A stretch of 64,000 nt of DNA from Candidatus Enterousia sp. (GCA_045613785.1 JAZLBQ010000007.1:78547-142546), one strand, 5' to 3'; shown: positions 40,654 to 63,983, numbered from the stretch's first letter. Numbers and translations are program-made. Notes: a model not told the origin generated them from the letters alone.

Positions 40654-40670
40654 GACATACGGATTAACAG
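40654..40670 (-). repeat. 17-bp copy of the tRNA-Asn att core
   Basis: GACATACGGATTAACAG, identical to 58707-58723 and 63936-63952. Confidence 0.85.
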
Positions 40671-40842
40671 GTTAAATGGCAAATAAACTGCGCAGAAAAA
40701 GTGGCGGATTTCTGCAGGTTGTAGCGAGTCGTTTTTGTGTAAAAATCACATTGTGATGACAGCGTGTGCTTTTCGGGATAGAACTGATGTCTTGTGTGAT
40801 TTGATTTTCTGAAAGCCAAGCACAGCAAGGCTTACAGCCTAG

Positions 40843-40890
40843 GTACCCCTACCTGTGAAATCAACGATGATATCTATCAGATTTCTATAG
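40843..40890. repeat. Island end motif (GTACCCCTACC plus GAAATC/GATTTCTAT boxes)
   Basis: Matches 58950-58984 at an equivalent position inside island B. Confidence 0.65.
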
Positions 40891-41060
40891 CTGAACCAGT
40901 TGCATAACACAATGAATTTACATAGAAATTTTTATTTCAAAAACGCAATGTATTATTTTTGTCCAAAAATGGATAAAACATGGATTGTAGCCGAAATGTC
41001 AGTATGCTTAACTTGCTTTTATATGAATAATTTAGTAGCCTTTTGTGTAAAGGAACCGGT

Positions 41061-41447
41061 GTGAAAGTAACTGCTGCAATTTTTAGAAATGGCGATAATG
41101 TTCTGCTGATGCGACGGGCGGCTGACCAACCTTTGGCGGGCGAATGGGAATATCCTGGTGGCAAGTTTGAAGATGGCGAAGACGGACCAACATGCCTGCA
41201 CAGGGAACTCTACGAAGAATTGGGAATAGACGCAGAAATTGGCGACCTGATTACCATTGCAAAACATACAACGGATTCGGGTAAGATTATTGAACTTCAT
41301 ACATACGAAATCACATCCTACACAGGCGAAATCCAACTGCGCGTCCACGACGATATGCATTGGGTGCCAGTCCAGGACTTACCCTCCCACCCACAACTCC
41401 TCGCCGACCAAATCGTATCTAAAACACTACAAGCCATGGGGAAGTAA
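41061..41447 (+). CDS. Nudix hydrolase (MutT/NudG-like)
   Basis: WEYPGGKFEDGE....CLHRELYEELG Nudix box. Confidence 0.9.
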   Translation: MKVTAAIFRNGDNVLLMRRAADQPLAGEWEYPGGKFEDGEDGPTCLHRELYEELGIDAEIGDLITIAKHTTDSGKIIELHTYEITSYTGEIQLRVHDDMHWVPVQDLPSHPQLLADQIVSKTLQAMGK

Positions 41448-41514
41448 AACGCGTTTTTTCTGTGGAAAAAATCATACAAACTTTGCTATGATCATCAAAA
41501 CAAGGAAGGTAAAT

Positions 41515-43227
41515 ATGAGTTTAGCATCAAACATAAATGAAAAAGCGAATTTAATTTGGGCAATCGCAGACAAATTAACAGGGCCATTCAAACCTCATGA
41601 ATATGGCGAGGTTATATTACCTTTGATGGTAATCCGTCGCTTTGACTGTATCTTACAAGATACAAAACAGGCGGTTTTGAATGCAAATAAATCAATCCCA
41701 GATGGCCCGATGAAACATGCGCTGCTGTGCGATGCGTCCAAGCATTCGTTTTATAATGTCAGTGATTTTACCTTCCCGCGTTTGATGGATGCCCCGGAAC
41801 ATATCGCAGAAAATTTTGCCGCATATATCGCAGGTTTTTCTGAAAACATTCGTGACATTATTGATAATTTTAAGTTTCAAAATATAATTGAGCGTTTGGT
41901 TGAAAACGACCTGTTGTATATCATCATAGAAGAGTTTTGCTCGCCCAAGGCCGATTTGCACCCATCAAAAATCAGTAATTTGGAAATGGGATACATTTTT
42001 GAAGAGGTTATACGTCGTTTTTCGGAATCACATAACGAAGACGCTGGGCAACATTATACCCCACGTGAAGTTATTGAATTGATGGTAAATATTTTGTTTG
42101 AAAACGATGATGAGTTTTTAACGGGTAATGTTGCAAAAACCTTGTATGACCCGACGGTGGGAACAGGCGGTATGTTATCCGAGGCGCAAGAATATCTGCA
42201 ATCAATGAATCCTGATGCAAAATTGGTATGTTATGGCCAGGAAATAAACCCACAAACATATGCGATTTGCAAGGGGGATATGCTGATCAAGGGCAATGAT
42301 GCAGACAATATCAGACGCGGAAATACATTGTCCGATGATAAGTTTGAAGGCGACAAATTTGATTATATTTTATCAAATCCGCCGTTCGGTCGTGAATGGA
42401 AAAAAGAAAAAGATGATGTTGAAAAAGAAGCAAAATTGGGGCATGCCGGTCGTTTTGGGGCCGGATTACCACCGATCAGCGACAGTCAAATGTTGTTCCT
42501 GCAAGTATGTGCCGCAAAATTACGTGACCAAGGTGGACGTGCGTGCGTTGTTCAAAACGGCTCGCCGTTGTTCAGTGGTGATGCCGGCAGCGGTTCATCA
42601 GAAATCCGTCGCTATTTGCTGGAACATGATTGGGTAGAAGCGATTATCGCATTACCAAATGATTTGTTTTATAACACGCCAATTGCGACATATATCTGGG
42701 TTTTATCAAACCGCAAGGCATCATACCGACAGCACAAGGTGCAGCTAATTGATGCCAGCCAAATGTATGAAAAACGTCGCAAAGCATTGGGAAATAAACG
42801 CAACGATATCCCACAATCTGCCATTGATGAAATAACGCGTATTTACGGTGAATTCAAAGAAACAGAAATCAGCAAGATATTCAATACAGATGAATTCGGA
42901 TATCGCAAGATTGTTGTTGAACGTCCATTGCGTGATGAAAACGGTGATGTTGTTTTGAAGAAAGGTAAACCGGTTGCCGACCCAAAGTTACGCGACACAG
43001 AAAACATCCCATTGACCGAAGATATTCAGACGTATTTTGAGCGCGAGGTTTTGCCATTTGCACCCGATGCATGGATTGATGAATCCAAGACAAAAATCGG
43101 ATACGAAATACCATTTACGCGCTATTTCTATAAATACACCCCGCCACGCAAATCAGAAGACATCATGGCGGAAATAATGACATTGGAATCTGAATTGGAT
43201 GCACTGTTGAAAGGGGTGTCCAAATGA
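41515..43227 (+). CDS. hsdM: Type I RM methyltransferase subunit
   Basis: GQHYTPREV, YDPTVGTGGML, SNPPFG, FYNT.I.TYIW; ATG 41515. Confidence 0.95.
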   Translation: MSLASNINEKANLIWAIADKLTGPFKPHEYGEVILPLMVIRRFDCILQDTKQAVLNANKSIPDGPMKHALLCDASKHSFYNVSDFTFPRLMDAPEHIAENFAAYIAGFSENIRDIIDNFKFQNIIERLVENDLLYIIIEEFCSPKADLHPSKISNLEMGYIFEEVIRRFSESHNEDAGQHYTPREVIELMVNILFENDDEFLTGNVAKTLYDPTVGTGGMLSEAQEYLQSMNPDAKLVCYGQEINPQTYAICKGDMLIKGNDADNIRRGNTLSDDKFEGDKFDYILSNPPFGREWKKEKDDVEKEAKLGHAGRFGAGLPPISDSQMLFLQVCAAKLRDQGGRACVVQNGSPLFSGDAGSGSSEIRRYLLEHDWVEAIIALPNDLFYNTPIATYIWVLSNRKASYRQHKVQLIDASQMYEKRRKALGNKRNDIPQSAIDEITRIYGEFKETEISKIFNTDEFGYRKIVVERPLRDENGDVVLKKGKPVADPKLRDTENIPLTEDIQTYFEREVLPFAPDAWIDESKTKIGYEIPFTRYFYKYTPPRKSEDIMAEIMTLESELDALLKGVSK

Positions 43228-44486
43228 GAGAAATGAAAGACAGCGGTATTGAATGGATTGGGGATATTCCTGCGAATAAGAATATAGTTAGGAACAAGTA
43301 TTATGTATCTTATACAAAGGGGAAAAATCCGATATCTCTTAATTCAGAAGGATTCGGCAAACCATATATCGGGGCATCTGATTTAGATACGTTAAATAAC
43401 ACTTATGAAAATTATACTACCGACGAGTATATTCCAGAATGCACGAAAGATGACATTCTTGTTTTGTGGGATGGTGCTAGAGCGGGATTGTTAGGAACTA
43501 ATAAAATAGGTTGTATTTCATCAACCATTGTAAAGCTTGAAGTTATTCCTGAAGTAATCTATACACATTTCTTTTTCTGGTACTTGAAGGGATTTGAGAA
43601 ATTTTTATCCGATATGGTTACAGGAACAACGATTCCTCATATGAATAGAAGATATATAGAGGATATACAATTTATAGACTTTTCATTACACCAACAACAA
43701 GCCATTGCGGATTATTTGGATGGGGAATGTGCACGAATTGATGGCATTGTTACAACCCAGCGCCAGATAATTGAACGCCTGAAGGAATACAAAAAGTCAG
43801 TTATTACCGAGACGGTTACACGTGGTCTGAACCCCGATGCGCCAATGAAAGACAGCGGCATTGAATGGATAGGCAAAATACCGGAACATTGGGAAGTAAA
43901 AAAAATAAAGTATTTATTTCAACTTAGGGATGAACGAAATTATCTTCCATTAGAACAAGTCAATTTGATTTCTTTATACACAGACAAAGGTGTTTTACAA
44001 CATGCTGACATAGAAGAAACCACAGGGAATAAGGCACAAAATGCAGATGGATACAAACTCGTTTATGAAGGAGATATTATCGTAAATATTATTTTATGTT
44101 GGATGGGTGCTATAGGGTTTTCTGCTTACAATGGCGTTACTAGTCCTGCTTATGATATTTATAAACCTTTACCAAAAACTAATAGTAAATATTATCACTA
44201 TTTGTTTAGAACATCGTTGTTTTCCGGAGAGTGTTACAAAGTTGGTAGAGGAATAATGTTGATGAGATGGAGAACATATTCAGACCAATTCAAATCAATT
44301 TATGTTTCTGTTCCGCCAATAGAAGAACAACAAGAGATAGCAGATTATCTTGACCGTAAATGTAGTGAAATCGATAGCATTATTGAAAAGCGTGAGCGGA
44401 TGATAGAACTGATGACGGAATATAAAAAATCACTGATATACGAATGTGTTACCGGCAAAAAGGAAATAGTTGATGTCGTGGAATGA
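43224..44486 (+). CDS. hsdS: Type I RM specificity subunit
   Basis: Two MKDSGIEWIG.IP conserved repeats, two TRDs, EQQ.IADYLD. Confidence 0.95.
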   Translation: MREMKDSGIEWIGDIPANKNIVRNKYYVSYTKGKNPISLNSEGFGKPYIGASDLDTLNNTYENYTTDEYIPECTKDDILVLWDGARAGLLGTNKIGCISSTIVKLEVIPEVIYTHFFFWYLKGFEKFLSDMVTGTTIPHMNRRYIEDIQFIDFSLHQQQAIADYLDGECARIDGIVTTQRQIIERLKEYKKSVITETVTRGLNPDAPMKDSGIEWIGKIPEHWEVKKIKYLFQLRDERNYLPLEQVNLISLYTDKGVLQHADIEETTGNKAQNADGYKLVYEGDIIVNIILCWMGAIGFSAYNGVTSPAYDIYKPLPKTNSKYYHYLFRTSLFSGECYKVGRGIMLMRWRTYSDQFKSIYVSVPPIEEQQEIADYLDRKCSEIDSIIEKRERMIELMTEYKKSLIYECVTGKKEIVDVVE

Positions 44487-44904
44487 TTTCTTTTCTTCAC
44501 AGTTGTTTGGGGTTATTATTGGGGCGCTGATGACCGGTGGTTTTACGTGGCTATTGGATTGCCTGCGATACAAACGCGAACGCAAGGCACATATTCAACA
44601 AAAACGCGAAGAATTATATATTCAAGTATGTCATGTGTTGATGGAACATGATAAATACTGTCGCGACCACGAATGGCCTAAACAGTGCAAAGAAATGTTC
44701 AATGAATTACAGGGCAAAATGCTGATATATGCATCCAAAAAGATTTACAAACAATATTATACATTAGATACTGAAATTTGTTCTGTTTATGCTAAAATGA
44801 AATCCAAGAAACAACGTGAAGAAATGTCAAACCAAATCGCAGACAAGGTAGAGGCATTTGCATCAGAAATGCGTAAAGAACTTGGTATAAAAGGAGTGTT
44901 ATAA
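44473..44904 (+). CDS. Small single-TM helical protein inserted between hsdS and hsdR
   Basis: Overlaps both neighbours; N-terminal TM helix. Confidence 0.7.
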   Translation: MSWNDFFSSQLFGVIIGALMTGGFTWLLDCLRYKRERKAHIQQKREELYIQVCHVLMEHDKYCRDHEWPKQCKEMFNELQGKMLIYASKKIYKQYYTLDTEICSVYAKMKSKKQREEMSNQIADKVEAFASEMRKELGIKGVL

Positions 44905-47900
44905 TGGCCGGCGATAACCTGAGAGAAATCAATTTAGAAGCAGCAATAGAAGAATCTTTGCTTACAGAGGGCGGTTATGAACGTGGTGACGCCAAGGTGT
45001 TTAATGCTGTAAATGCGCTGGATGAGCAAACTTTGCTAAAATTTATACAGACCAGCCAACCAAAAGCCTGGAAAAAATATACTTTGATATATCCTGCTAA
45101 CCCAGATCAATGTTTTATTGATCGTGTATGCAAGGTTATTCGTGAACGTGGCCTTCTGGACGTGTTGCGCAAGGGGTTCAAGGATCGCGGTATTGAGTTT
45201 AAATTGATGTTTAAGCGCCCAACCAATACATTAAATCCGGATTTGATAACACAATATAACCAAAATATCTTACAGTGTATGCGCCAGGTTCATCATTCTG
45301 TTTCGCGACCAAATGACAGTGTGGATATTATGTTGTTGCTGAACGGGATACCGGTTGTTTCAATGGAACTGAAAAACCAATTTACAGGCCAAGATGTAAC
45401 CAATGCGATTGATCAATACAAGTTTGATAGATCTGGTGCAGACGCCGCATTTGAATTCAAGCGTCGTGTTTTGGTGCATTTTGCGGTTGATTTATACAAT
45501 GTGTTTATGACAACAAAATTAAATGGTGCAAAAACATTCTTTTTGCCGTTTAATCAGGGATCAAATGGCGCAGGCAATGTTGGTGGACGGGGAAATCCAG
45601 CCAATCTGAATGGATTTACAACAGATTATTTATGGAAAAACATTCTGCAGCGCGATCGATTGTTGGAAATTATTGAAAAATACATTCATCTGGAAGTAAT
45701 ACGTGATAAGAAAACAAAGAAAGTTACCAAGGAAACAATGATATTTCCACGTTATCACCAATTGGATGTTGTGACAAAACTGATAGAAGATGTCCAAAAG
45801 AACGGTTCAGGTCACAGTTATTTGATTCAGCACTCTGCAGGTTCTGGAAAATCTAACTCTATTGCATGGTTAACGCATCGGTTATCCAGTTTGGCGGATG
45901 CAGAATCCAATCGTATATTTAATTCTGTAATTGTTTTGACGGATAGACGTGTCTTGGATGGCCAATTACGCGATACAATCAGTCAGTTTGACCATGTTGA
46001 AGGTACTTTGGAAGCTATTACAGAAGGTTCTGCACAGTTAAAAGAAGCGATTAACGACGGAAAACACATAATTATATCTACGTTGCAAAAGTTTCCGTAC
46101 ATTTACAATGAATTACAAAAGACAGATAAAAAGTTTGCTGTCATAATTGACGAAGCACACTCGTCCCAATCAGGCAAGGCCGCATCAACTGTTATTGCAG
46201 GTTTGGGGGATACAGAAGCGGCACTGGCAGAACAGGCGGCTATTGAAGCACAAGCAGAAGGTGATGTTACTGACGGGTACGATGAACTGGATAAAGTATT
46301 AGCAGGCCAAGGTCAGCACGATAACTTGTCTTTCTTTGCTTTTACCGCTACGCCAAAGGCAAAAACACTGAATAGATTTGGAACCAAACAGGCGGATGGC
46401 AAATATGTGCCTTTCCATGTTTATTCAATGCGTCAGGCGATTGAAGAAGGCTTTATTTTGGATGTTTTGCGCAATTATACGACATATAGCACATATTATA
46501 AGCTAATGAAAAATATACCTGACGATCCACAGCTTGAAACGTCTAAAGGGGCAAAGGCGGTACGTAGATTCCAAACCTTACATCCTCATAATATAGCCCA
46601 GAAAACCCAGATAATGATCGAGCATTTTCGCGATGTGACAAAGAATAAGATCGATGGACGCGCAAAAGCTATGGTTGTTTCTTCGTCTCGGCTGCAGGCA
46701 TTAAAATACTATCAAGCATTTAAAAAGTATATTGCCGAACATGGATACACGGATGTAGATGTCTTGATTGCTTTTTCTGGTGAATTAACAGTAGATGGGC
46801 AAAAATATACAGAAGAAGGTTTGAATATTGCAAAAGATGGCAAAACGCGTATCAAAGAAAAACAGCTTCCTGAATATTTTAAGCAAGACTTTAATGTATT
46901 GATTGTTGCAGACAAATATCAAACAGGATTTGATGAACCGTTATTGCATACAATGTTTGTTGATAAAAAACTGAACGACGTAAAGGCAGTGCAAACATTA
47001 TCTCGTTTAAATCGTACAACCGCAGGCAAAACAGATACTTTTGTGCTAGACTTTGTTAATACGGCGGAAGACATTCAAAAATCATTCCAGCAATATTATC
47101 AGGCAACATTTCTCACTGAAGAAGTTGATCCAAATGAATTGTATAAATTACAGGCTGTGTTGGATGGAAAAGCGGTTTATACGCCACAAGAAGTCGAAAA
47201 TTTTGCTTCTATATTCTTTGCGGACAAGCAAAGCAAAACAGACCTTGGTAAATTATCAAGCATTCTAAAGCCGGCACAAGACAGGTTCATTGCGCTGGAT
47301 CAACAGCAAAAGGATGAGTTCAGAAGTGTTTTGAATAATTTTATCCGCATGTACAGCTTTGTCGCCCAAATTGTACGTTTGTTTGATCGTGATTTGCAGA
47401 AGTTCTATGTGTTTGCGTCGTTCTTGATAAAAGTACTAAGAAATGAAAAAACGGAAAATCCAAAATTGGACGACAAACTAGTGCTAGAATATTATAAACT
47501 GGTAAAAACACACGAAGGGGATATTGCCTTAAAACAGGAAGATGGCGGAACCGTACCGCCAAAGGGTGGAACGGCAACTACCAAGAAAGAGAAGGCGCCA
47601 TTATCAGCGATTATTGATAAGTTTAATGAACGTTTTGGAACTGATTTTTCTGGTGTTGATAAGGTGCTGGAACAAGTTATGGACGTTCTTAGCAAGGACG
47701 CAATGCTATCAGAAGCAGCAAAAACAGATAACAGAACATTGTTTGACGGTTTGATGCCAGAACGCTTTAATAAAGCAATGATTGACAGATATAATCAAAA
47801 CGACCGTTTCTTCAAGGAAATCTTCTCGGATGAAGAGAAATTAGAGTTCCTGAAGCATTTATTGTTTGAAGAAGCCTATCGTTCTATGTCCGCCAAAAAG

Positions 47901-47909
47901 AAAAAATAG
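44904..47909 (+). CDS. hsdR: Type I RM restriction subunit
   Basis: NGIP...ELKN, PRYHQ, HSAGSGKS, DEAHSSQ, FTATP, KYQTGFD, QTLSRLNR. Confidence 0.96.
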   Translation: MAGDNLREINLEAAIEESLLTEGGYERGDAKVFNAVNALDEQTLLKFIQTSQPKAWKKYTLIYPANPDQCFIDRVCKVIRERGLLDVLRKGFKDRGIEFKLMFKRPTNTLNPDLITQYNQNILQCMRQVHHSVSRPNDSVDIMLLLNGIPVVSMELKNQFTGQDVTNAIDQYKFDRSGADAAFEFKRRVLVHFAVDLYNVFMTTKLNGAKTFFLPFNQGSNGAGNVGGRGNPANLNGFTTDYLWKNILQRDRLLEIIEKYIHLEVIRDKKTKKVTKETMIFPRYHQLDVVTKLIEDVQKNGSGHSYLIQHSAGSGKSNSIAWLTHRLSSLADAESNRIFNSVIVLTDRRVLDGQLRDTISQFDHVEGTLEAITEGSAQLKEAINDGKHIIISTLQKFPYIYNELQKTDKKFAVIIDEAHSSQSGKAASTVIAGLGDTEAALAEQAAIEAQAEGDVTDGYDELDKVLAGQGQHDNLSFFAFTATPKAKTLNRFGTKQADGKYVPFHVYSMRQAIEEGFILDVLRNYTTYSTYYKLMKNIPDDPQLETSKGAKAVRRFQTLHPHNIAQKTQIMIEHFRDVTKNKIDGRAKAMVVSSSRLQALKYYQAFKKYIAEHGYTDVDVLIAFSGELTVDGQKYTEEGLNIAKDGKTRIKEKQLPEYFKQDFNVLIVADKYQTGFDEPLLHTMFVDKKLNDVKAVQTLSRLNRTTAGKTDTFVLDFVNTAEDIQKSFQQYYQATFLTEEVDPNELYKLQAVLDGKAVYTPQEVENFASIFFADKQSKTDLGKLSSILKPAQDRFIALDQQQKDEFRSVLNNFIRMYSFVAQIVRLFDRDLQKFYVFASFLIKVLRNEKTENPKLDDKLVLEYYKLVKTHEGDIALKQEDGGTVPPKGGTATTKKEKAPLSAIIDKFNERFGTDFSGVDKVLEQVMDVLSKDAMLSEAAKTDNRTLFDGLMPERFNKAMIDRYNQNDRFFKEIFSDEEKLEFLKHLLFEEAYRSMSAKKKK

Positions 47910-47926: not shown

Positions 47927-49128
47927 ATGCCTGAAATAAGTGTCCAAATTGTGGGAAAACATTTACGGTTGATGAATCTGGCTATGCTGCCATTGTAGCC
48001 CAGGTTAGAGATGGAGAATTTCATAAGTCTATTGACGAGCGCCTAAAACAGTTCGAAAAAGAAAAAGCAAACGAGTTAAAACTTGCTGAAACCACCGCGA
48101 AAATGGAAAAAGAACAATCCGAGGCACAATTAAAGCAACAGATTGAACAGCTGAAGGCCAAGCTGGATTCTAATGAAAAGGATATTGCTATTGCGGTAAA
48201 TAAAGCGATGCAGCAGTCAAGTGAAGTGTTGGCTGAAAAAGATAAAAAAATAATGGAGTTGCAAAACAGTCTATATAATTCTGAAAAAGATAAACTGTTA
48301 ACAGAAGAATCCTTGAAGAATCAATTCGCTGCTACAATTAAGGAAAAAGATGCGGAAATCGCATTCTATAAAGACATGAAAACAAAAATGTCTACCAAAA
48401 TGGTCGGTGAAAGCTTAGAACAGCATTGCGATGTTGAATTCAACAGATTGCGCCAAACTGCATTCCCAAATGCATATTTTGAAAAAGATAATGATGCGAA
48501 AACTGGCAGCAAGGGTGACTTTATTTTTAGAGACTATGTTGATGGGACTGAATATATATTCATTATGTTTGAAATGAAAAACGAAATGGATACGACAGCC
48601 ACAAAACATAAAAACGAAGACTTTTTCAAAGAATTGGATAAAGATCGTCGGGAAAAAGGCTGTGAATACGCAGTATTGGTATCCTTGCTAGAAGCGGATA
48701 ACGAATTGTATAATGGTGGTATTGTCGATGTGTCGCACAAATACGACAAAATGTATGTTGTGCGTCCACAATGCTTTATACCAATTATAACACTGTTACG
48801 TAATGCCGCATTAAATTCTGTTCAATATAAACGTCAGATTGCAGAGTATAAACAGACGAACATCGATGTATCAAACTTCGAAAAAGAAATGAACGAATTT
48901 AAAGAAAAATTCGGAAGGAATTATGCGCTGGCGAGTGATAAGTTCAAAAAGGCGATTGATGAAATTGATAAAACAATCGACCATCTGCAAAAAACAAAAG
49001 AGGCACTGCTAGGGTCTGAAAACAATCTGCGTTTGGCAAATGATAAAGCCCAGGACTTATCAATCAAACGCCTGACAAAAAACAACCCGACAATGACCAA
49101 AGCGTTTGAAGATTTGAAAGAGGAGTAA
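47927..49128 (+). pseudogene. DUF2130 family (copy 2) with a 1-nt deletion at codon 5
   Basis: ATG CCT GAA ATA AG TGT CCA AAT: adding one base restores MPEIKCPNCG in frame with ORF 48103-49128. Confidence 0.8.
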
Positions 49129-49132
49129 AATT

Positions 49133-50968
49133 GTGTATTTACATTCTTTAAAAATAAAAGGGTTCAGAAAAATATCTAATGCTGAAATAATATTTTCACC
49201 AAATACTACATTTTTAATTGGTGCCAATAATGCTGGAAAAAGCAGTGTGTTCGCAGCATTAAAGTTGTTTTTGTCTGCTAATAAAACTACGGCAGAAGAT
49301 GATTTTTGTAGAGAAAACAGCGAATGTTTGCCTAGTGATATAATTGAGTTGGAAGGAGAATTTAGAGGAGTGAATCCCGAAGTTATTTCTAATCCAAGTT
49401 GGAAAGGTTTTAATGCTAGACGAGTGTTGAAATATGCCAAAGATGACGGAACATATGATTATAGAATTTTTTACAAGAGAGTGTTTCATAGAGGAGGATC
49501 AAGCACCTTTTATATGCGAGAATTTAGCGCCGTTCCTAAACAAGAATATGCTAATGCTAGAACCTGGCGTAATTTAATTGAGAATGGATTAGATAGATTT
49601 TTAATTCATGTAGAAGACGATAAATTAGATGATCCTATATATAAAACAACAAGAAACTCTGTAAAAAACCCCGTAGATGAACTGTATGATATGGATGCGT
49701 TTTGGAATATTGATACAGACAGTGAGGATAATTTAGATTGGAAAGAAAATCCTGGCGGTTTCGCATCAAACGTTATTTCGAAATTGCCAAAAATTTTGCT
49801 TATCCCTCCTCATGATGATATTGATGAATATGGCGAAAAGAAGGGGACTTTATATGATCTTTTAAACGAAATATTTGATGAAATAAAATCTGTTTCAGAC
49901 AATTATCGTAATGCCCAACATTATTTATCATTATTGGCAAACGAATTTTCCTCTACTGATTCTAGTTCTCCATTAAGAGAGTTAATTGGCAATTTGAATA
50001 GTGTTATTGGTGGTGTTTTCCCAGGAGCAAAACTTGAAGCCACCACCACTTTTGATTATGACAATGCTTTGACACCAAAGTACAATATACGTTTGGGGAG
50101 TAATATCAGTACAAAACCAGAATACCAGGGAACAGGTCAGGTTAGAGCCGCAGTGTTTGGTTTGTTAAAATATAAAGAATCTCATGATAAAGAAAAAGGT
50201 AGAACAGAAAAAGATTTAATAATAGCATTTGAAGAACCTGAATTGTATTTGCATCCTCATGCGGCCTATTTAATGAAAGAAGTTATCTATAAATTATCCG
50301 AAAGTTGCCAAATGGTATGTTCAACACATTCTCCGTATATGATAGACTTATCAAAAGATAGAGAACAGATATTAAATAGGTTATCAGTAATTCGTGATGA
50401 ATATGATATTGAACAAACAAAAATTGAAGCATTCAACTTATCTCCTACGTACGAAACCTTACAAGATGATGAGAAATCGTATCTAAAAATGTTATTAAAA
50501 ATAGACAGTGAAATAGCAAAAGTGTTTTTTGGACAAAAAATACTCATCGTAGAAGGGGACACGGAAGAAATTGTATTGAAGAAAGTTTTATCATTACTTG
50601 AGGAAGATAAACGTAACAAGATAGTAGCGTCATGGACAATAGTAAAGGCTAGAGGTAAGCCTGTGATCATATCTTTAGTCAAATATTTAAGAGCAATGGG
50701 CTTTAGTGAGATAACAGTAATGCACGATAGCGACAATTCGAATGACAGAGCTATGGTATTTAACCAACCAATAAAAGATGTAGTCGGAAACGATGAACGT
50801 GTTGTTGTGTTAAATGGATGTATAGAAGAAGAGCTAGGGTATCAGGCTCCTGCAATAGATAAACCTTTTAAAGCGTTTTGCAAAGCGAATGAATGGCATG
50901 AATATACAGACGTGCCTGAATCATTTAGGTTAAAACTAGAACAAATATTCGGCTTAGAACATTTATAA
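49133..50968 (+). CDS. OLD-family ATP-dependent nuclease (ABC ATPase + TOPRIM)
   Basis: GANNAGKSS, QGTG, FEEPELYLHP, STHSP, IVEGDTE, HDSD. Confidence 0.9.
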   Translation: MYLHSLKIKGFRKISNAEIIFSPNTTFLIGANNAGKSSVFAALKLFLSANKTTAEDDFCRENSECLPSDIIELEGEFRGVNPEVISNPSWKGFNARRVLKYAKDDGTYDYRIFYKRVFHRGGSSTFYMREFSAVPKQEYANARTWRNLIENGLDRFLIHVEDDKLDDPIYKTTRNSVKNPVDELYDMDAFWNIDTDSEDNLDWKENPGGFASNVISKLPKILLIPPHDDIDEYGEKKGTLYDLLNEIFDEIKSVSDNYRNAQHYLSLLANEFSSTDSSSPLRELIGNLNSVIGGVFPGAKLEATTTFDYDNALTPKYNIRLGSNISTKPEYQGTGQVRAAVFGLLKYKESHDKEKGRTEKDLIIAFEEPELYLHPHAAYLMKEVIYKLSESCQMVCSTHSPYMIDLSKDREQILNRLSVIRDEYDIEQTKIEAFNLSPTYETLQDDEKSYLKMLLKIDSEIAKVFFGQKILIVEGDTEEIVLKKVLSLLEEDKRNKIVASWTIVKARGKPVIISLVKYLRAMGFSEITVMHDSDNSNDRAMVFNQPIKDVVGNDERVVVLNGCIEEELGYQAPAIDKPFKAFCKANEWHEYTDVPESFRLKLEQIFGLEHL

Positions 50969-52357: not shown

Positions 52358-52370
52358 AGCAGCACTTTAA

Positions 52371-54002
52371 TTAAGAAAAATTAGATATAAATTCCATATT
52401 TTCAAAATATGAATGTCTAAAGTGTTCTAAATCAAAAGCCGAGGCTGTGTCAATGTTTGGCTCTGGCTCAACCCATTTAGGCTCTCGGTTAAGCTTGATG
52501 GATACAGCAATACGGCCATTGTTATCAATGGGATTTTTATTCCCCATGTTGTCGTAATCGACGATCCATTCCAGTGGTGACTGTTGATTAGCGCAAACTT
52601 TGAAAAAACGGTCTACATTATCTCTAATAACTAATTTTCCCATATTTTTATATGTTGCTTCAGAATATATAGAAGAAAAACCTTGAAGGTTTGGAATTAC
52701 AGGTATGATTACCTCTTTCTTAGTGTCTTCAAATTTTTTATTGGCGTTTTCTCCAAACACAATATATGCATATGATTTTTTATCATTTTTTGAGAATATT
52801 TTATGTAAAACCCCACCGTATTGACCATAGATAAAATCATTTGTTTTTAGGTGATTATATACTTGAATGTCAAATTCATGTAAACAAACCAGCAATGTTA
52901 CTAAATCGGGCGAATAAAATTCATTTATAGATGCGATATGTTTGGAAAATAAAACCAATCGGTCAAAAATTTGTTCCATTTGTCGCAAATTGAATTTGAA
53001 CCAAATGCTATAATACGTAAAATAATTTATTATAATATTTTCACATGTTTGGTGTTGGTTATATGTGTCGGCTTGTTTTATAAACTCATTTAAGTTTTCT
53101 CCAAAAAAAGTTTGGTTAATATAATCTCTATATTTGTCTCTCCTGATTTTGAATAACAAATCCTTTTTATTCTCTTGAATGCGCTGTATAATATTTGGCA
53201 TATCTGACCTGCTATATAAATATTCCGTAAATTTTGCTTTGTCGGGTTTGGGCAAGACAAAAGAATTATTTATAAATTTGCGCTTATAGCCGTCAAAATT
53301 CTTTGTGCCATACAGGGTTTCTACCGAGCTTTTAAGCTGATCCTCATCGATTGCCAAAACAAATACGAATCCGGGGATATCAAAGAAATGTTTGAGTATT
53401 TCAAGTGTTTTAACTGCATAGTCTGGACGACAACGATCTAGTTCATCAATAATGATAATGATCGGTTTGTTAATACGTTTCGCCCAAGCAGATAGAAAGT
53501 TTTTGGTTTTGTGTAGCTGTGCTTCATACTCCAAATAAGAGTTGTACAACTTACTTTTAGAAGGTTTTAGTTGCTTGTATAATCTAACGATCTTATCGAT
53601 GTTAAAGCCAAAGTATTTTAGAAAACGTTTGAAAAGCCATGTTGTTATATTGATGCTGATTTTTAGCTTGTTTGACATCCATATACGAAATTTATTATTT
53701 TTTATATAAACATCCTGCAATTTAATCAGCAAAGGGATCAATGGATTATCATAAAAATCCATTTTCCATATATTTAGCATGCTTACAGGAACATCGTCTT
53801 GCTCCAAGATGTCTGCCAGTCTTTCGCAAAAAAATGTTTTTCCAACACCAAATTCAGCAGAAATGGAATAAACTTTTGATGTCCCATTTTCTACGTATTT
53901 TTCCTGCTTTAAAATATTGGCAAAGCTTGTAACGTGCTGCTTTATACCAAGTTTGTCTTTCAACCAAATATCTTCATTTTTAATAGTTTCGCTTTTTGCC
54001 AT
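52371..54002 (-). CDS. KAP-family P-loop NTPase
   Basis: D.LG, SAEFGVGKT, IIIIDELDRCRP, LEILKHFF, FVLAID. Confidence 0.88.
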   Translation of the reverse strand: MAKSETIKNEDIWLKDKLGIKQHVTSFANILKQEKYVENGTSKVYSISAEFGVGKTFFCERLADILEQDDVPVSMLNIWKMDFYDNPLIPLLIKLQDVYIKNNKFRIWMSNKLKISINITTWLFKRFLKYFGFNIDKIVRLYKQLKPSKSKLYNSYLEYEAQLHKTKNFLSAWAKRINKPIIIIIDELDRCRPDYAVKTLEILKHFFDIPGFVFVLAIDEDQLKSSVETLYGTKNFDGYKRKFINNSFVLPKPDKAKFTEYLYSRSDMPNIIQRIQENKKDLLFKIRRDKYRDYINQTFFGENLNEFIKQADTYNQHQTCENIIINYFTYYSIWFKFNLRQMEQIFDRLVLFSKHIASINEFYSPDLVTLLVCLHEFDIQVYNHLKTNDFIYGQYGGVLHKIFSKNDKKSYAYIVFGENANKKFEDTKKEVIIPVIPNLQGFSSIYSEATYKNMGKLVIRDNVDRFFKVCANQQSPLEWIVDYDNMGNKNPIDNNGRIAVSIKLNREPKWVEPEPNIDTASAFDLEHFRHSYFENMEFISNFS

Positions 54003-58314: not shown

Positions 58315-58337
58315 CGGACGTGTTTTGTTGATTAAAT

Positions 58338-58367
58338 AGAGGTGTCGGAAGTGATGCCTCTTTTTTT
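58338..58367 (+). terminator. Intrinsic terminator
   Basis: agaggtgtc...gatgcctct followed by a T run. Confidence 0.65.
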
Positions 58368-58678
58368 AGGCTTGTGATAAATCGGCAATAGTTGATTTGG
58401 TGTCGTATCTATATTCAAGAACACCTGCATTTTATCTGTGCAAATATTCATTCCAAAAACGCCCATTTTTGCAATATGTTCAAAATATGTAGATTTTTTT
58501 ATGGGTTGTGAAATGGTAAGTTATTCATCGGACTGCGGACAGGTTGCGGATCCTGTGTAGCTGCTGTGTAGCCAAGGGGTTAAATAGTGGTGTTTTTGGG
58601 TGGATTGTGGTGTGCCTAAATCCAAAAGTGTTAACAAAGAAAAACGCCGCAAAATCAACGATTTTGCGACGGAATTCG

Positions 58679-58725
58679 TGGCTCGGGCAACTGGACTCGA
58701 ACCAGTGACATACGGATTAACAGTC
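58679..58725 (-). repeat. 47-bp duplicated 3' half of tRNA-Asn (att site)
   Basis: Identical to 63908-63954, from anticodon loop to CCA. Confidence 0.93.
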
Positions 58726-58949
58726 AAAAAGCGGCAGTTGCTGTAAAATCGCTGTAAGCCAGTGTGAGCAAGGGATTGCGAGTTTTTGTAAAAGTCGCTT
58801 TTGGGGTGCTTGGTGTAAGATTATGTGTTTTTATAAAAAAATATTTTGAAACTCAAAATGCAAGCGGTTAAGAGTTGTAAAAAAACATTTTTTTCAAAAA
58901 TTAAAAATTTATAAAAAAGCCAGAAATCTGCATATTATAAGGCCTCGCT

Positions 58950-58984
58950 GTACCCCTACCATAGAAATCAGTGTAGATTTCTAT
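58950..58984. repeat. Island end motif with ATAGAAATC-N6-GATTTCTAT inverted repeat
   Basis: GTACCCCTACC then a perfect 9-bp inverted repeat at 58961-58984. Confidence 0.7.
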
Positions 58985-59105
58985 AAAAACGCTATTTTCA
59001 CTACATATAAAATTGAATTTTTAATGATATGTTCAAAGAGACTTGATTTGATATTTTTTGTAATTATACTATAACACAGATAACCAATGCATTAAGGGGG
59101 TATAT

Positions 59106-59771
59106 ATGAACAACGACTATGTTGGTAGAGGGGTTTATACTTATCCTGATATTATAAGAATTGTTGGTATTTCTCGTTCCAGAATTAAAGGTCTGGTTGA
59201 TGGTCACACGAAACAAAACAAGACAAAAACACCTGTTATAACAAAAAGATCATTTATATTCGAAAATAAAGAATACTTCTCTTTTTTAGATTTAATTGAA
59301 ATAAAATTTATAAAACATTTCCTAGACCAAGGAGTTCCTAGAAAGAATATTATTCAAGCATACAATAAGATTAAAGAGGAATTAAAAAAAGAGCATCCTT
59401 TTGCAACCAGGTTTGTTGCTAATGTTACACATAATATTTTTATGGATAATAATAGAGATTTAGTTAGTTCGCTGGATAATCAAGTTTGGATGCGAGAACT
59501 TACAGAGGGAGAATTATTAAAAGGAATTGATTTTGAACATGATTTAGCAGCTCGCTGGTATCCATATGAGGACGAGCTTCCAGAAGTTGTATTAGATCCA
59601 GAATACAATTATGGAATGCCGATATTAAAATCTTGCAACATCAAAACTTCGAGTATATATGATGCATATGTTGCAGAAAATTGCAATGCTGATATTGTTG
59701 CGGACTGGTTTAATATACCTGTGGATTTTGTGAACCAAGCTGTAAAGTACGAAACAAGGTTGGGGATATAA
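59106..59771 (+). CDS. VapB45-like antitoxin (HTH + DUF433)
   Basis: GVYT, FSFLDLIEI, HPFA, VVLDP...GMPI, VADWF. Confidence 0.8.
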   Translation: MNNDYVGRGVYTYPDIIRIVGISRSRIKGLVDGHTKQNKTKTPVITKRSFIFENKEYFSFLDLIEIKFIKHFLDQGVPRKNIIQAYNKIKEELKKEHPFATRFVANVTHNIFMDNNRDLVSSLDNQVWMRELTEGELLKGIDFEHDLAARWYPYEDELPEVVLDPEYNYGMPILKSCNIKTSSIYDAYVAENCNADIVADWFNIPVDFVNQAVKYETRLGI

Positions 59772-60197
59772 ATGGTATTTGTGTTTGATGAAAATATTCC
59801 CAGTAAAATCGTAGAAACTTTATCAGCGCTGTATAAAGATTGCGCTGGAATACATAATTTGTATTCTGTGGAGCAACTGAATATGCGTGGCACAAAAGAT
59901 GTTGATTTAATGTCAAAGATAAAAGAGACTTTTCCAGAAGAAAAATGCATTTTTATTTCTGGTGATAAAAATATTTTAAAGAGGCCGCCGGAATTAGAAG
60001 CAATAAAAAATGCTGGTTTTGTTGGATTTATATGCGCTCCCAGTTCTTGTCAAAAAAATTTTCTTGAAAGGGGATTATATATTATGAATTTATGGCCAAG
60101 AATTTTGGAATTAGCTGAAAAATCTCGTCAGAAAACGATCTATAAAATGCCTGCAATATCTTTCGTGCCCACAGAGAAAGAATTTAAAAAATTGTAA
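59772..60197 (+). CDS. PIN-domain toxin (VapC45-like)
   Basis: FVFDENIP, GTKDVD, ISGD.NI..RP.E; adjacent to the antitoxin. Confidence 0.8.
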   Translation: MVFVFDENIPSKIVETLSALYKDCAGIHNLYSVEQLNMRGTKDVDLMSKIKETFPEEKCIFISGDKNILKRPPELEAIKNAGFVGFICAPSSCQKNFLERGLYIMNLWPRILELAEKSRQKTIYKMPAISFVPTEKEFKKL

Positions 60198-60218
60198 GTT
60201 TAGTTTTTGTAGCTGGTT

Positions 60219-60854
60219 TTATGCCACCCATTTTGATCGTTTGTCCATGTATAATGGTTCTAAGTTGTGTCTGAATTCTTCAACAATGTCGTTGATTTCT
60301 TTGTTAACTTTGTCATCGGATATAACTTTGCCATCTTTCATTTCGCAAAATATAAAATCATACAACGGTCTATATTCCGGGGTGTCTTTGCCATAATACA
60401 AATCTTTAGATGCCTGCATAATTCTAAAATTATATTCGGTCAGTTTAAGTATGGCGATGATAATTTCTTTCCCCCAGTACATATAGGCCTGATTTTGTAA
60501 TGACCGCAATTTTTCAATAATGTCTTGTTGTTTTATTAGTCTCTGGTGCGGAACCAAGTGATCTACTCGTTCTGGATATACATCAGCATTGCCGGGATGT
60601 GCAGCTGTTTCTGCTTTTATCCATTCAAGTGCTTCGTCATGTTCTACTTTTGCTATCATTGGCATTCTAACGCCAATATACAGGTCTTGAATATCGTAAA
60701 CAGCACGCATGATGTCCGCGGCAAGTTCAATTTTCTTTTTACCAATAAATTCACGTTTCCAAGTATAAAGAGCCACCACAGCAATAATGGCTGTTGTGAC
60801 GGATGCTGTACAAGAAATAATGTCTGTTACAATCATGTGTTTGATAATATTCAT
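60219..60854 (-). CDS. Single-TM helical hypothetical protein
   Basis: N-terminal TM followed by TWKRE..GKKKIELA. Confidence 0.7.
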   Translation of the reverse strand: MNIIKHMIVTDIISCTASVTTAIIAVVALYTWKREFIGKKKIELAADIMRAVYDIQDLYIGVRMPMIAKVEHDEALEWIKAETAAHPGNADVYPERVDHLVPHQRLIKQQDIIEKLRSLQNQAYMYWGKEIIIAILKLTEYNFRIMQASKDLYYGKDTPEYRPLYDFIFCEMKDGKVISDDKVNKEINDIVEEFRHNLEPLYMDKRSKWVA

Positions 60855-60938
60855 AATTTTACGTCATTTCAATAATATTCTATTTCATTTACCGAGATAT
60901 TTATTGCGCTGGATATAGCAGTGTGTTATCATCCAGAT

Positions 60939-62075
60939 ATGTTCTATGAAAAACAACCTATTGCGAACAGAGAAGAATATAAGCAAATGCTGGCTTTGGT
61001 AGGTCAGCTGTCTAATATTTTTTCTGAAAGCGATTGTCCGTTTTTGTCTTATAGAGCCCATGAAAATATTTTTTGTAAATATTTGGGCGCGGAAAATATA
61101 GCTCGTTCTGATTGTTCTGCTGATGCAAAGCACGACAAACTTGGTATAGGGTTAAAAACTTGGATGGGTAGTGACGATCAAAAGGTTGCCGAGTTTGGAC
61201 GGTTGAAAAAGAATTATGCACAGTTGACAGGTATTGATCTTGTAAAACAAATTGCTGAATATAGAAATGAACGTATAAGAGTAACGAAGAAATTACATGG
61301 TTTGGATTCTATGATTTATCACGTTGTTAAACGTGTGCCTGGTGCCATGCAAGTTCTTGAGGGTGTATTTGATGAAATCGATATTGATAATATAACGCTT
61401 CTCCCTAAAAAGGGTAAGGAAAACAATACATATTTTACAGACGGAAAACATAAATATCATTTCAGCACATCAAAAAATACATTGTATATGATATTTGATT
61501 TTCTTGAACAGTTGGATTCATTTGAGGTCAAGATTCTGGAAGATCCGTATACGGTTTTATTGAAAACCATGGAAAATCCGGACGAAAGAATTAGAAAATT
61601 TATTGATTTTGGAACGCAGAAGCCTCAGTTGTGTTTGAGATTATACTCTGTTGAGAAAGATAAAAAATTTGTTGGGCTCAAAAGTGGTCTTAACCAGTGG
61701 AATGCTAAGGGCAGGCCTCGTAATCCAAATGAGGTGTACATACCATATCCTAAAGTTGATAGAGATAGAATACCTGATTTCTTTCCACCGAGAAACACCC
61801 CGTTCAATTTGCGTTTGCCGGATGGTACAGTAATCCCAGCGAAGGTATGTCAACAAGATAACAAAGCTATCATGAGTAATCCAAATAGGTTGCTAGGTAA
61901 GTGGTTGTTGAGAGATGTTTTTGAATTGCCAGACTGGAAGTTGGTTACGTATGAAATGTTGGAAAAGTTTGGTATAGATAGTGTGATATTCACTAAGAAC
62001 GCGGAACTGGACTATTCTATTGAATTTTCTGATTTGGGAACATATGAACAGTTTTATGGTCTTGAAGACGAATAA
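60939..62075 (+). CDS. Type II restriction endonuclease, NgoFVII-like family
   Basis: YR.HEN.FCK, DA..GIGLKT, QKVAEF, SGLNQWNA.GR.R..NEVYIP, KAIMSNPN..LGKW. Confidence 0.82.
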   Translation: MFYEKQPIANREEYKQMLALVGQLSNIFSESDCPFLSYRAHENIFCKYLGAENIARSDCSADAKHDKLGIGLKTWMGSDDQKVAEFGRLKKNYAQLTGIDLVKQIAEYRNERIRVTKKLHGLDSMIYHVVKRVPGAMQVLEGVFDEIDIDNITLLPKKGKENNTYFTDGKHKYHFSTSKNTLYMIFDFLEQLDSFEVKILEDPYTVLLKTMENPDERIRKFIDFGTQKPQLCLRLYSVEKDKKFVGLKSGLNQWNAKGRPRNPNEVYIPYPKVDRDRIPDFFPPRNTPFNLRLPDGTVIPAKVCQQDNKAIMSNPNRLLGKWLLRDVFELPDWKLVTYEMLEKFGIDSVIFTKNAELDYSIEFSDLGTYEQFYGLEDE

Positions 62076-62106
62076 AAAATTTTTCGTTTTTTGATTGATT
62101 TCTATT

Positions 62107-62118
62107 GCGGCGCGCCGC
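62107..62118. promoter_or_regulatory. GCGGCGCGCCGC palindrome (two GCSGC sites) in the methyltransferase promoter
   Basis: 12-bp all-GC palindrome in AT-rich intergenic DNA about 45 bp upstream of the MTase start. Confidence 0.6.
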
Positions 62119-62163
62119 GATTTATGATAAGTATATTATCAGGAAAAGAAAGAGAGGTTGGAT

Positions 62164-63150
62164 ATGTATACTATTGCATCATTTTTCGCAGGGGTTGGTG
62201 GTATAGATTTGGGATTTGAACAAACCAACAAGTGCAAAACAATTTACGCAAATGAATTTGATCCTTATGCAAGTGAAACGTTCGAAAAGAACTTTCCTAA
62301 TGTTAAAGTAGATCAAAGAGATATACATATCGTTCCAGAAAAAGATGTGCCAAATGCAGATATATTCATAGGTGGGTTCCCTTGTCAGGCGTTTTCCATC
62401 GCTGGTTATAGACAGGGTTTCGACGATGAAAAGGGTAGAGGAAATCTGTTTTTTGAGCTGGTTCGTATGATGAAAGCAAAAAAACCTCGGGTTGCGTTAT
62501 TTGAAAATGTAAAAAATTTGGTCAGCCATGATAATGGGAACACCTTTCGTGTTATTTGTAATGAGTTAGAAAAGTTAGGATATAGCTATACATATCAGGT
62601 TTTGAATGCAATGAATTATGGGAATATGGCACAAAACAGAGAACGTATATATATTGTAGCGTTTCGAAACAAGAAAGATTTTGCCAAATTTAAATGGCCG
62701 ACTACAGTTCCTTTGACCACAACAGTAAAAGACATTATAGATTTTACCAAAAAGGTGGACGACAGGTTTTATTACACCAAAGATAAATATAAAGGTGACA
62801 TATATGAACAGCTTGTAGAAGCCACAAAAGATGATGACAGTAAGCATCCCGCGATTTATCAATGGCGAAGAAAATACGTTAGAAAAAACAAAAGCGGTGT
62901 AGTTCCAACACTTACAGCCAACCAGGGCGAAGGTGGTCATAATGTTTGCATAGTTAAAACAAAATACGGTTTACGTAAAATGACACCACAAGAATGTTTT
63001 AATACCCAGGGGTATCCCAAAACATTTGTGTTACCAAAACAAAGTGATGCGCGTTTATATAAGCAAGCAGGAAATTCTGTTTGTGTACCAGTTATTCATA
63101 ACATAGCAGAAAATATAGTTGTTGCCATATCTGATGGCGGTGAAGACTAA
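62164..63150 (+). CDS. dcm: C5 cytosine DNA methyltransferase
   Basis: FAGVGG, GFPCQAFS, ENVKNL, Q.RER, YKQAGNSV. Confidence 0.95.
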   Translation: MYTIASFFAGVGGIDLGFEQTNKCKTIYANEFDPYASETFEKNFPNVKVDQRDIHIVPEKDVPNADIFIGGFPCQAFSIAGYRQGFDDEKGRGNLFFELVRMMKAKKPRVALFENVKNLVSHDNGNTFRVICNELEKLGYSYTYQVLNAMNYGNMAQNRERIYIVAFRNKKDFAKFKWPTTVPLTTTVKDIIDFTKKVDDRFYYTKDKYKGDIYEQLVEATKDDDSKHPAIYQWRRKYVRKNKSGVVPTLTANQGEGGHNVCIVKTKYGLRKMTPQECFNTQGYPKTFVLPKQSDARLYKQAGNSVCVPVIHNIAENIVVAISDGGED

Positions 63151-63512
63151 TTATGGAGCCCATTTTTCCACAAAGTGGCCATTTGGAATAATTTGCGCTG
63201 GTAGCGACGGAGCAACCATGTCTGCCGGCATGTTGGGTCGCCATTGTTGGTTCTGCGTATAGCGTTCTCTAACTCGTGCAGTGATCGACATGTTGCGAAA
63301 TAAAGCATAATAAAGTCAGTCTTGTTACTGGGCTCAATTTCCCGAAAATGTTTGTACTCCATAGACAATCCTTTTAAGGTTGTCGTATTCGTCAATATCT
63401 TTCAGCGAAAGTCCAGTCATTTGTTCAATGTAACAAAAATAAAAATACACAATCTTACACCACGAGTGCGATTTTTACTAGAAAAGGGTTAGAATATTAC
63501 GGGTTTTGCTTT

Positions 63513-63545
63513 TACGACATACGGACTAGCATTCCGTGTGTCGTA
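63513..63545. repeat. 13-bp inverted repeat resembling the tRNA-Asn anticodon arm
   Basis: TACGACATACGGA-CTAGCAT-TCCGTGTGTCGTA; 19/22 match to 63936-63957. Confidence 0.65.
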
Positions 63546-63664
63546 GGGGGGGTGGTGTGTAATAAATGCTTTATGGTGTATATGTCTGCAGTTGATTTAG
63601 AATCATGATTTTTGATTTTCCAAAAAACAAAAAATAACAATCGTTGAAATTACTTGATTTTTTA

Positions 63665-63709
63665 ATAGAAATCTACATAGAAATCAATATAGAAATCTAT
63701 ATACAAATC
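63665..63709. repeat. Four ATAGAAATC-like direct repeats, 12-bp period (possible arm-type sites)
   Basis: Copies at 63665, 63677, 63689 and ATACAAATC at 63701. Confidence 0.75.
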
Positions 63710-63907
63710 ATAAAAAAAGCCATCGGACAAGAAAACGTATTTATAGAAATGTAAGGGTGGTTTTTCATAGGTGTTCTGTGTATTTTGGTGTATTTTTATT
63801 AAAAAACAAGGGTAAAAATGCCCATTTTTGACGTTTTTGTGTGTTTTATACAGGAACAAATTGCCGCTATGAAAGCAAAGAAAAATCCCGGAAAACCGGG
63901 AAATTTT

Positions 63908-63983
63908 TGGCTCGGGCAACTGGACTCGAACCAGTGACATACGGATTAACAGTCCGTTGTTCTACCGACTGAACTATGCCCGA
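63908..63983 (-). tRNA. tRNA-Asn(GTT)
   Basis: TCGGGCATAGTTCAGTCGG...CTGTTAA...GGTTCGAGTCCAGTTGCCCGAGCCA. Confidence 0.96.

Follow-up and report, generated by a model that had tools for sequence, protein, structure and literature searches.

Two integrase-less defence units in tandem at a tRNA-Asn gene of Candidatus Enterousia, possibly assembled by site-specific recombination within the anticodon loop

A tRNA-Asn gene of Candidatus Enterousia sp. (GCA_045613785.1) is adjoined by two consecutive blocks of defence genes, each of which is delimited by partial copies of the tRNA gene itself. The window that we analysed is a stretch of 64,000 nucleotides (JAZLBQ010000007.1:78547-142546), and all positions are counted from its first letter; the blocks and the tRNA gene lie at 40654-63983. 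We lean towards reading this region as a tandem array of two integrase-less, att-flanked defence modules that was built by site-specific recombination at the tRNA gene. A first-pass annotation made from the sequence alone had reported three cores in the same orientation delimiting units of ~18 kb and ~5.2 kb, an end motif inside both left ends, four repeats inside the right end of the small unit, a cargo almost entirely of defence or toxin–antitoxin (TA) genes, and the lack of an integrase in either unit. All of these observations are borne out by the analysis below, the description of the cargo holding for most of its genes.

The boundaries are set by a 17-nucleotide core, GACATACGGATTAACAG, which occurs in three exact copies at 40654, 58707 and 63936, all on the + strand, where 0.00 would be expected from 100 shuffles. 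Unit 1 is thus 18,053 bp long (40654-58707) and unit 2 5,229 bp (58707-63936). The rightmost core lies in an intact tRNA-Asn(GTT) gene on the minus strand (63908..63983), identified by ARAGORN and also by Rfam (74 bits), of which it covers the 3′ side of the anticodon stem, the variable region and the anticodon loop. The loop reads TTAACAG on the + strand (63946-63952), and comparison of junctions places the crossover here. The window ends 17 bp past the tRNA gene. The middle core is part of a longer copy of the tRNA-Asn 3′ half, with 47/47 identity between 58679-58725 and 63908-63954; this copy ends in the loop, is preceded by a terminator-like hairpin, and forms the junction of units 1 and 2 on the + strand. 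At the left junction of unit 1 (40654..40670, + strand) the match to the tRNA is 17/17 only, again ending in TTAACAG. As the full 3′ half is kept at 10/10 comparable junctions in relatives, and only 17 bp of it in the window, the left junction has been shortened by a local deletion, beside an HD_4 gene. An HD_4 gene also adjoins the left junction in one of the related loci described below (L021), the two genes being 68% identical. No further att relics were found within unit 1. In the terms of an Islander-type search, the intact tRNA gene and its displaced fragments (the 47-bp and 17-bp copies) lie as direct repeats at the ends, and Pfam and tblastn find no tyrosine integrase gene within the island. 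Phage records of Klebsiella and Escherichia include annotated tRNA-Asn genes that match the 36 bp around the middle core (58690-58725) at 100%, so the target site is common far outside the Enterousia group.

A fourth copy of the core, with three mismatches, is found at 63516-63532. It is held within a hairpin with a 12-bp stem (63510..63545, + strand) that mimics an anticodon arm and has counterparts in the related loci L013, L018, L002 and L012. The stems ACGGA/TCCGT are extended to about 10-12 bp and the loop differs from that of tRNA-Asn. The hairpin lies 130-150 bp before the tandem boxes of the window, and its counterparts likewise precede boxes. It could be a relic core or an additional recombinase site.

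Each unit has an arm at both ends, between the tRNA-derived sequence and the cargo. The distal arm of unit 1, which we call type A (40671..41042, + strand), contains the 11-mer GTACCCCTACC at 40843-40853, followed by GAAATC, GATATC and GATTTC boxes (40857-40888); the pairwise identity of this arm is 91.6-97.2% among six species. The distal arm of unit 2, type B (58726..59105, + strand), has GTACCCCTACC at 58950-58960, directly followed by the palindrome ATAGAAATC-N6-GATTTCTAT (58961-58984), with 9-bp arms and a 6-bp spacer. This arm is 90.0-93.6% identical to those of L007, L016 and L021. Two matches to GTACCCCTACC in the window are not significant on their own, since at least two occurred in 5/100 shuffles; the significance of the 11-mer comes from its conservation in relatives. 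The nonamer ATAGAAATC has 10 exact matches in the window against 0.78 expected, and 6/10 fall in the arms, at 40880(-), 58961(+), 58976(-), and 63665, 63677 and 63689(+). The last three belong to the tRNA-proximal arm of unit 2 (63665..63709, + strand), where a one-mismatch copy at 63701, ATACAAATC, brings the tandem boxes to four, spaced at a 12-bp period. The tRNA-proximal arm of unit 1 (58315..58678, + strand) contains CTGTGTAGC twice and a terminator-like hairpin at 58645-58671, and has no GAAATC box.

The cargo of 40654-63983 is mostly defence or TA genes by Pfam and PADLOC. It is a cluster of several known or candidate anti-phage systems, as expected of a defence island: type I restriction–modification (RM), an OLD-family nuclease, PDC-S07, PDC-S11, PDC-S20 (KAP NTPase), HEPN/AbiU2-like open reading frames (ORFs), HipBA, a PIN pair and type II RM. 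The first gene past the type A arm encodes a MutT-like NUDIX protein (41043..41447, + strand; Pfam NUDIX 3e-19, PADLOC PDC-S07 6.5e-34), and a NUDIX gene occupies the same place in 5/6 relatives. It is followed by the type I RM system (41515..47909, + strand), comprising HsdM (41515-43227), HsdS (43224-44486), a 144-aa ORF of unknown function and HsdR (44904-47909). Four genes at 48103..54002 encode a DUF2130 protein (48103-49128), an OLD-family ATPase-nuclease (49133-50968), a DUF4268 / PDC-S11 protein (51431-52357) and, on the minus strand, the KAP NTPase / PDC-S20 protein (52371-54002). There follow two phage-like small ORFs (54167-54700 and 54687-54956) of 48% GC, which coincide with a patch of that composition at 54000-55000 in surroundings of about 31-41% GC. 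Two AbiU2-like HEPN ORFs (54934-55668 and 55701-56333) and a PLD nuclease remnant (56340-56660, minus strand) come next. Unit 1 ends with genes for a HipB-like helix-turn-helix (HTH) protein (56844-57065) and a HipA kinase toxin (57058-58314), both on the + strand and identified by profile search.

Unit 2 begins with a TA-like pair (59106..60197, + strand), a 221-aa ORF with a weak DUF433 / HTH match and a PIN_10 nuclease ORF. A 211-aa ORF of unknown function (60219..60854, minus strand) has 82.5-90.8% nucleotide identity in the units of L013, L018 and L023. The type II RM system (60921..63150, + strand) consists of an NgoFVII-like endonuclease (60921-62075) and a C5 cytosine methyltransferase (62158-63150). 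At the tRNA-proximal end there is a small conserved ORF of 82 aa (63147..63395, minus strand) with a core of about 69 aa. Its homologues fall into 243 clusters, and no cluster carries a functional name; the few with a named source come from metagenome-assembled genomes (MAGs) of Alphaproteobacteria. The AlphaFold 2 model is a two-helix hairpin (pLDDT 86), for which there is no fold match among PDB structures and no Pfam or NCBIfam match; the idea that this protein is an excisionase is therefore unsupported. Some relatives have it as a fusion with a domain that is a homologue of the 89-aa phage-like ORF at 54687-54956 (phrog_1933), and these fused proteins match hypothetical phage proteins only. 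Because of the fusion, the window ORFs 63147-63395 and 54687-54956 may work together.

How general is this arrangement? A genome collection was scanned with the end motif GTACCCCTACC-N3-GAAATC; the genome of the window was not itself among the matches. The scan gave 23 loci, of which 12 come from 11 MAGs named 'Candidatus Enterousia sp.' or Alphaproteobacteria. The other 11 lie in unrelated phyla with no core nearby and were left out. We regard them as chance matches, about the number expected for 17 specified bases by our own estimate. Among the 12 related loci, a core is found within 600 bp of the motif in 10, and the remaining two have the loop and a tRNA 5′ half instead. Six loci have arms of type A (like that at 40843), four of type B (like that at 58950) and two of a further type C. 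The three types can be aligned only at the loop and at GTACCCCTACC-N3-GAAATCA. Measured from the loop start, the motif is 179 bp away in type A, 233 bp in type B and 236 bp in type C. The layout is nonetheless common to all 12 loci: the loop TTAACAG, GTACCCCTACC with inverted GAAATC boxes 179-236 bp further on, cargo, tandem GAAATC boxes and the next loop. The first-pass annotation had proposed scanning related genomes for the core and boxes, and held that its interpretation would fail if the end motifs were not conserved elsewhere; they are. The tRNA-Asn halves of the relatives are identical or nearly identical to that of the window, and the flanking genes are 66-75% identical; on both counts the window would belong to an organism related to them. 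Compared with phage records the arms matched in the tRNA part alone, and compared with plasmids they gave no match.

The boxes are concentrated in the arms. The density of GAAATC/GATTTC is 5.9-29 per kb in 14/16 arms counted, including some hexamers that lie in terminator hairpins, compared with 0.3-1.2 per kb in unit interiors and 1.19 per kb for the whole window. The two low-density arms are the proximal arm of unit 1 in the window (0) and an upstream arm in L009 (2.6 per kb). The boxes form a tandem run on one arm and an inverted pair on the other, and the three bases preceding GAAATC match between both ends of a unit. Thus ATAGAAATC (ATA) is found in window unit 2 and ATTGAAATC (ATT) in type C. 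For type A, the units of L009 and L018 both have ATAGATATC, and that of L009 has ATAGAAATC as well.

Comparison of the junctions locates the point of exchange. In 10/10 relative junctions of types A and B the core belongs to a complete tRNA 3′ half that is followed downstream by a terminator hairpin. Six classes of flank are found to the left of the tRNA half and four to the right of the loop, these being arm A, arm B, a third arm (D, in L018) and the tRNA 5′ half. Ten combinations of left and right flanks are observed, and every one breaks at the loop. One left class precedes arm A in L009 and arm B in L007; in L013 and L018 another is found before arm A, before the third arm and before the intact tRNA. 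At the 3′-type junctions identity with the tRNA runs to the right edge of the loop or 2 nt beyond it, and at the 5′-type junctions it begins exactly at TTAACAG, the left edge. The exchange point therefore appears to be the 7-nt anticodon loop, between the inverted arms of the stem. A loop between inverted stem arms is the layout expected of a tyrosine recombinase core, and the free mixing of flanks and arms with breaks at the loop is the pattern that site-specific recombination leaves when its overlap is 7 nt long.

The type C loci are a mirror image, in which units are bounded by the loop with perfect tRNA-Asn 5′ halves and a promoter-like flank. There are three such 5′-type junctions in L002 (4221, 6948 and 11828) and two in L012 (reverse-complemented; 1 and 2886), and the intact tRNA is absent from both stretches. 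The flank past two of the L002 5′-half copies matches window 63984-64000. L010 and L012, which come from one genome, fit a single locus with a 3′-type array on one side and a 5′-type unit on the other. In L002 a prophage-like segment with a Phage_GPD gene abuts the TTAACAG loop. FabI is encoded on the right side of tRNA-Asn in L013 (19159-20020) and on the left side of the array in L018 (5226-6090) and L016, and is noted in L012 too; the neighbourhood of tRNA-Asn has thus been rearranged between species.

Recombinases were sought throughout. Among 59 ORFs across the whole 64 kb, Pfam gave no Phage_integrase or other recombinase domain; 11 of those without a match revealed no integrase when rescanned at a lenient threshold, and tblastn with the integrase of a relative found neither an integrase nor a remnant in the window. 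In the 12 related loci 148 ORFs of at least 100 aa and 48 further frames of at least 130 aa were scanned, with no cognate integrase, and 18 ORFs of unknown function rescanned at E<=0.5 gave no weak integrase signal. No recombinase is encoded in any of the seven complete units, of which the window and L002 have two each and L013, L018 and L012 a single one; the nearly complete unit of L009 has none either. None follows any of 15 distal arms, where the stretch visible past the motif ranges from 0.29 to 10 kb. Nor were conjugation, relaxase or integrase remnants found in the units of the window or the relatives. The three ORFs of the type C unit were considered as a hidden recombinase or Rep protein, without support; one resembles an Rz-like lipoprotein.

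An integrase-bearing element with the same boxes, which the first-pass annotation had suggested looking for, did not emerge. The sole tyrosine integrase among the loci is a P4-type enzyme (Phage_integrase + Arm-DNA-bind_3) at L020:685-1854. It lies directly to the right of a tRNA-like 3′ half and three GGTAGCAAA repeats (L020 460-1854). We read this half as Thr(UGU)-like; Rfam scores it as tRNA only weakly, at 18.5 bits. We therefore rejected it as the cognate enzyme, its tRNA-like half being different and its repeats taking the place of GAAATC boxes. The integrase unit of L020 ends at a tRNA-Asn half, so that its two ends are mismatched. A small resolvase is encoded 7 kb outside the L010 array, and at the visible end of the L010 unit an ORF with a reverse-transcriptase domain (19409-20020) follows type I RM.

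The units are modular and have been recently exchanged between species, because arms and some of the cargo are 92-97% identical where chromosomal neighbour genes are only 66-75% identical. Arm A together with the NUDIX gene is 93-97% identical between the window and six other species. A block at 56638-58988, from HipBA to just past the arm B palindrome and so including much of that arm, is 96.5% identical to L020 4069-6382. L013 and L018 are 95.8% identical over 3.77 kb from the first base of the tRNA half; past this point the restriction cargo differs, and identity then resumes at 95.2% over the small ORF and hairpin. Homologous recombination between shared ends is probably a second process, by which cargo is swapped.

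On these comparisons of sequence we favour the following scheme for the array. The recombination overlap would be the 7-nt loop TTAACAG, and each module would keep an attP-like pair of arms. The distal arm would present the invariant GTACCCCTACC beside an inverted GAAATC pair, 179-236 bp from the loop; the proximal arm would present tandem GAAATC boxes about 190-280 bp before the next loop, then a terminator and a tRNA 3′-half copy that restores the gene. The GAAATC boxes are candidate arm-type sites of a heterobivalent tyrosine integrase. As no module encodes a recombinase, integration and any excision would depend on an integrase supplied from elsewhere, which might be encoded by a phage, by the chromosome or by a further element inserted at this tRNA, and it is plausible that such an enzyme moves the units in trans. 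Cargo would then be swapped inside the conserved ends, probably by homologous recombination. The first-pass annotation had proposed a family of non-autonomous cassettes moved by an integrase in trans. The att-type junctions, the lack of a recombinase, the same type of box at both ends, the family of 12 loci and the modular exchange agree with the first part of that proposal; the integrase in trans stays conjectural, no cognate enzyme having been found.

The attP sites of heterobivalent integrases of the lambda type, or like that of HP1, have a crossover in the anticodon loop within an inverted stem, a replacement tRNA 3′ half and short boxes on both arms. The window resembles these in having boxes in tandem on one arm and paired on the other, and differs in that no integrase gene lies beside the arms and that the boxes are putative sites. 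We can name no counterpart of the invariant 11-mer GTACCCCTACC in such attP sites. The array is like an integron, including sedentary chromosomal integrons with defence cassettes, in that a platform at one site gathers cassettes without their own recombinase. Unlike an integron, it has no intI or attI with Pc in the 64 kb, its units are multi-gene with arms of ~0.3-0.5 kb at both ends, and the tRNA is regenerated. Nor are the boundaries attC sites; they are tRNA-derived cores with long arms, where Rfam finds tRNA only. With no intI, attI or attC, the label 'integron-like' of the first-pass annotation can be kept only as an analogy.

The closest known concept is that of the cis-mobilizable element (CIME) and tandem accretion, which is itself well established. 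CIMEs keep attL and attR, have no integration or transfer genes, and are stacked in tandem at the 3′ part of the target gene by successive site-specific integration, as described for streptococcal elements related to ICESt1/ICESt3 (PMC5704250). At the sequence level unit 2 is bounded by two cores and its arms carry boxes, while unit 1 has its shortened left site and box-less proximal arm, and neither has integration or transfer genes; the array could thus be described as a CIME-like accreting defence island in function. Yet there are differences. No remnant of a conjugation or integration module is present in the window units, and descent from an integrative and conjugative element (ICE) or an integrative and mobilizable element is not evident. 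To be integrase-less is the rule across the 11 genomes and not an occasional product of decay. Three unrelated types of arm keep one invariant 11-mer, conserved arms directly abut defence cargo, and there is a mirror form with a tRNA 5′ half and promoter. The tycheposons of Prochlorococcus are also tRNA-flanked islands in small genomes, described as showing repeated integration, with tandem elements split by partial tRNAs and with degenerate fragments that remain (10.1101/2020.12.28.424599). The window array shares the position beside a tRNA, the tandem elements, the partial tRNAs and the degenerate remnants. The same account defines tycheposons by the tyrosine (or serine) recombinase that they themselves encode, in most cases together with a replication module (10.1101/2020.12.28.424599), and neither is found in the units of the window or its relatives. 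We found no description of the present system in the literature on Enterousia or on tandem anticodon-loop integration with defence islands, which is no proof of absence.

Several observations weigh against assembly of the array by site-specific recombination with an enzyme from outside. A cognate integrase was found neither in the window nor in the 12 related loci. ORFs were picked by a simple longest-ORF rule, which limits the result that no recombinase is present, and the long units are visible for 10 kb only, so that an integrase at the far end is possible. The block of 96.5% identity with L020 crosses a junction, so at least some of the spread is by transfer of array segments and not by integration unit by unit. 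The proximal small ORF and hairpin of the window are 69% identical to those of L013 or L018, which is like chromosomal DNA. Given its left site and proximal arm, unit 1 may be fused, disabled or no longer able to recombine.

The alternative that survives best, though we judge it unlikely, is that the partial tRNAs and arms are fossil scars of old integrations, the region now being a hotspot where blocks are exchanged by homologous recombination with no site-specific step left. The junction-spanning block, the swapping of cargo between conserved ends in L013 and L018, and the shortened left site of the window would all be explained in this way. So would the homology of arm B to relatives, which stops right past the inverted boxes at 58988, the degenerate relics at 63516 and in arm D of L018, and the different side on which FabI lies in L013 compared with L018 and L016. 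But the 11-mer and boxes are invariant in three arm types that are otherwise beyond alignment, and this implies selection on the sites themselves. The subtype of the box agrees between the two ends of a unit, the ten flank-by-arm combinations all break at the same 7 nt, and the partial tRNA halves are mostly undecayed.

We think it slightly less likely again that this is an ordinary composite island, in which an integrase-bearing prophage or island at the same tRNA, to the right of 64000 or beyond the 10-kb flanks, serves the array in cis as in CIME-ICE accretion. The prophage-like segment abutting the loop in L002 and the existence of arrays on the 5′ side of the tRNA are in keeping with it, as are the end of the window just past the tRNA and the fact that five units of the relatives are visible only in part. 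It is opposed by the lack of an integrase in the seven complete units or after the 15 distal arms. Furthermore the whole locus of L013 is a single unit, with FabI directly beside the tRNA, although only about 0.9 kb is visible beyond the tRNA there.

It is improbable in our view that the GTACCCCTACC block and GAAATC boxes are not recombination sites at all, but a promoter/operator module, or the origin or transfer origin (oriT) of a helper-dependent element. An operator role is possible for the type B boxes, as the palindrome precedes a promoter-like site by about 60 bp and the first ORF of unit 2 by about 120 bp. Boxes like ATAGAAATT precede a NUDIX copy that lies away from any core in L020, and some type A units carry an S24 (CI/LexA-like) protein. 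Yet a unit has boxes at either end, about equally far from the crossover, and the proximal ones face a terminator and the tRNA with no gene. A promoter scan of the arms was no better than shuffles (4 sites against 3.0 expected), and no Rep protein, relaxase or shared regulator is found across the unit types. A Tn7-like or insertion sequence end was rejected since it would bring short target duplications where the array has tRNA halves, and a Xer/dif-type site since the core has no apparent resemblance to dif.

Returning to the site-specific array, a bolder form of it can be framed, which we consider doubtful. The tRNA-Asn loop of the Enterousia group might be a dedicated platform, where one recombinase encoded elsewhere, host-domesticated or phage-borne, would recognize the GAAATC boxes and GTACCCCTACC and would insert, stack and exchange promoter-bearing, recombinase-free defence cassettes on both sides of the loop. 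The 3′-half units would go to one side and units with a 5′ half and promoter to the other, giving a tRNA-based analogue of the integron that is shared across species.

Elsewhere in the window a second defence-rich stretch lies at 21800-40577, between a tRNA-Lys gene (21800-21875) and the HD_4 gene. Its genes encode an LPD3 protein, a UvrD-like helicase, a MotA/OmpA pair (Zorya-like), a WYL protein, a second DUF2130 protein, McrBC and an AAA_5-DUF7192 pair; there is no core copy and no integrase in this stretch. Small proteins with an Mtd_N domain (Major tropism determinant N-terminal domain) are encoded at 972-1484 and 17145-17717, and also in L005 and L009.

Genomes of the Enterousia group are described as mostly below 1 Mb (PMC12306168), and a 23-kb defence array at a single tRNA is therefore a large investment. 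If the junctions were fossils only, the finding would be that of an ordinary decayed island. If the recombinase does lie outside the units, island finders that need an integrase gene would miss them, and the 11-mer and boxes would provide a sequence handle for the cassettes and, beside the same sites, for the missing recombinase. Defence genes would then circulate as minimal modules keeping cis sites only, a cheap means of sharing immunity between species of uncultured gut bacteria.

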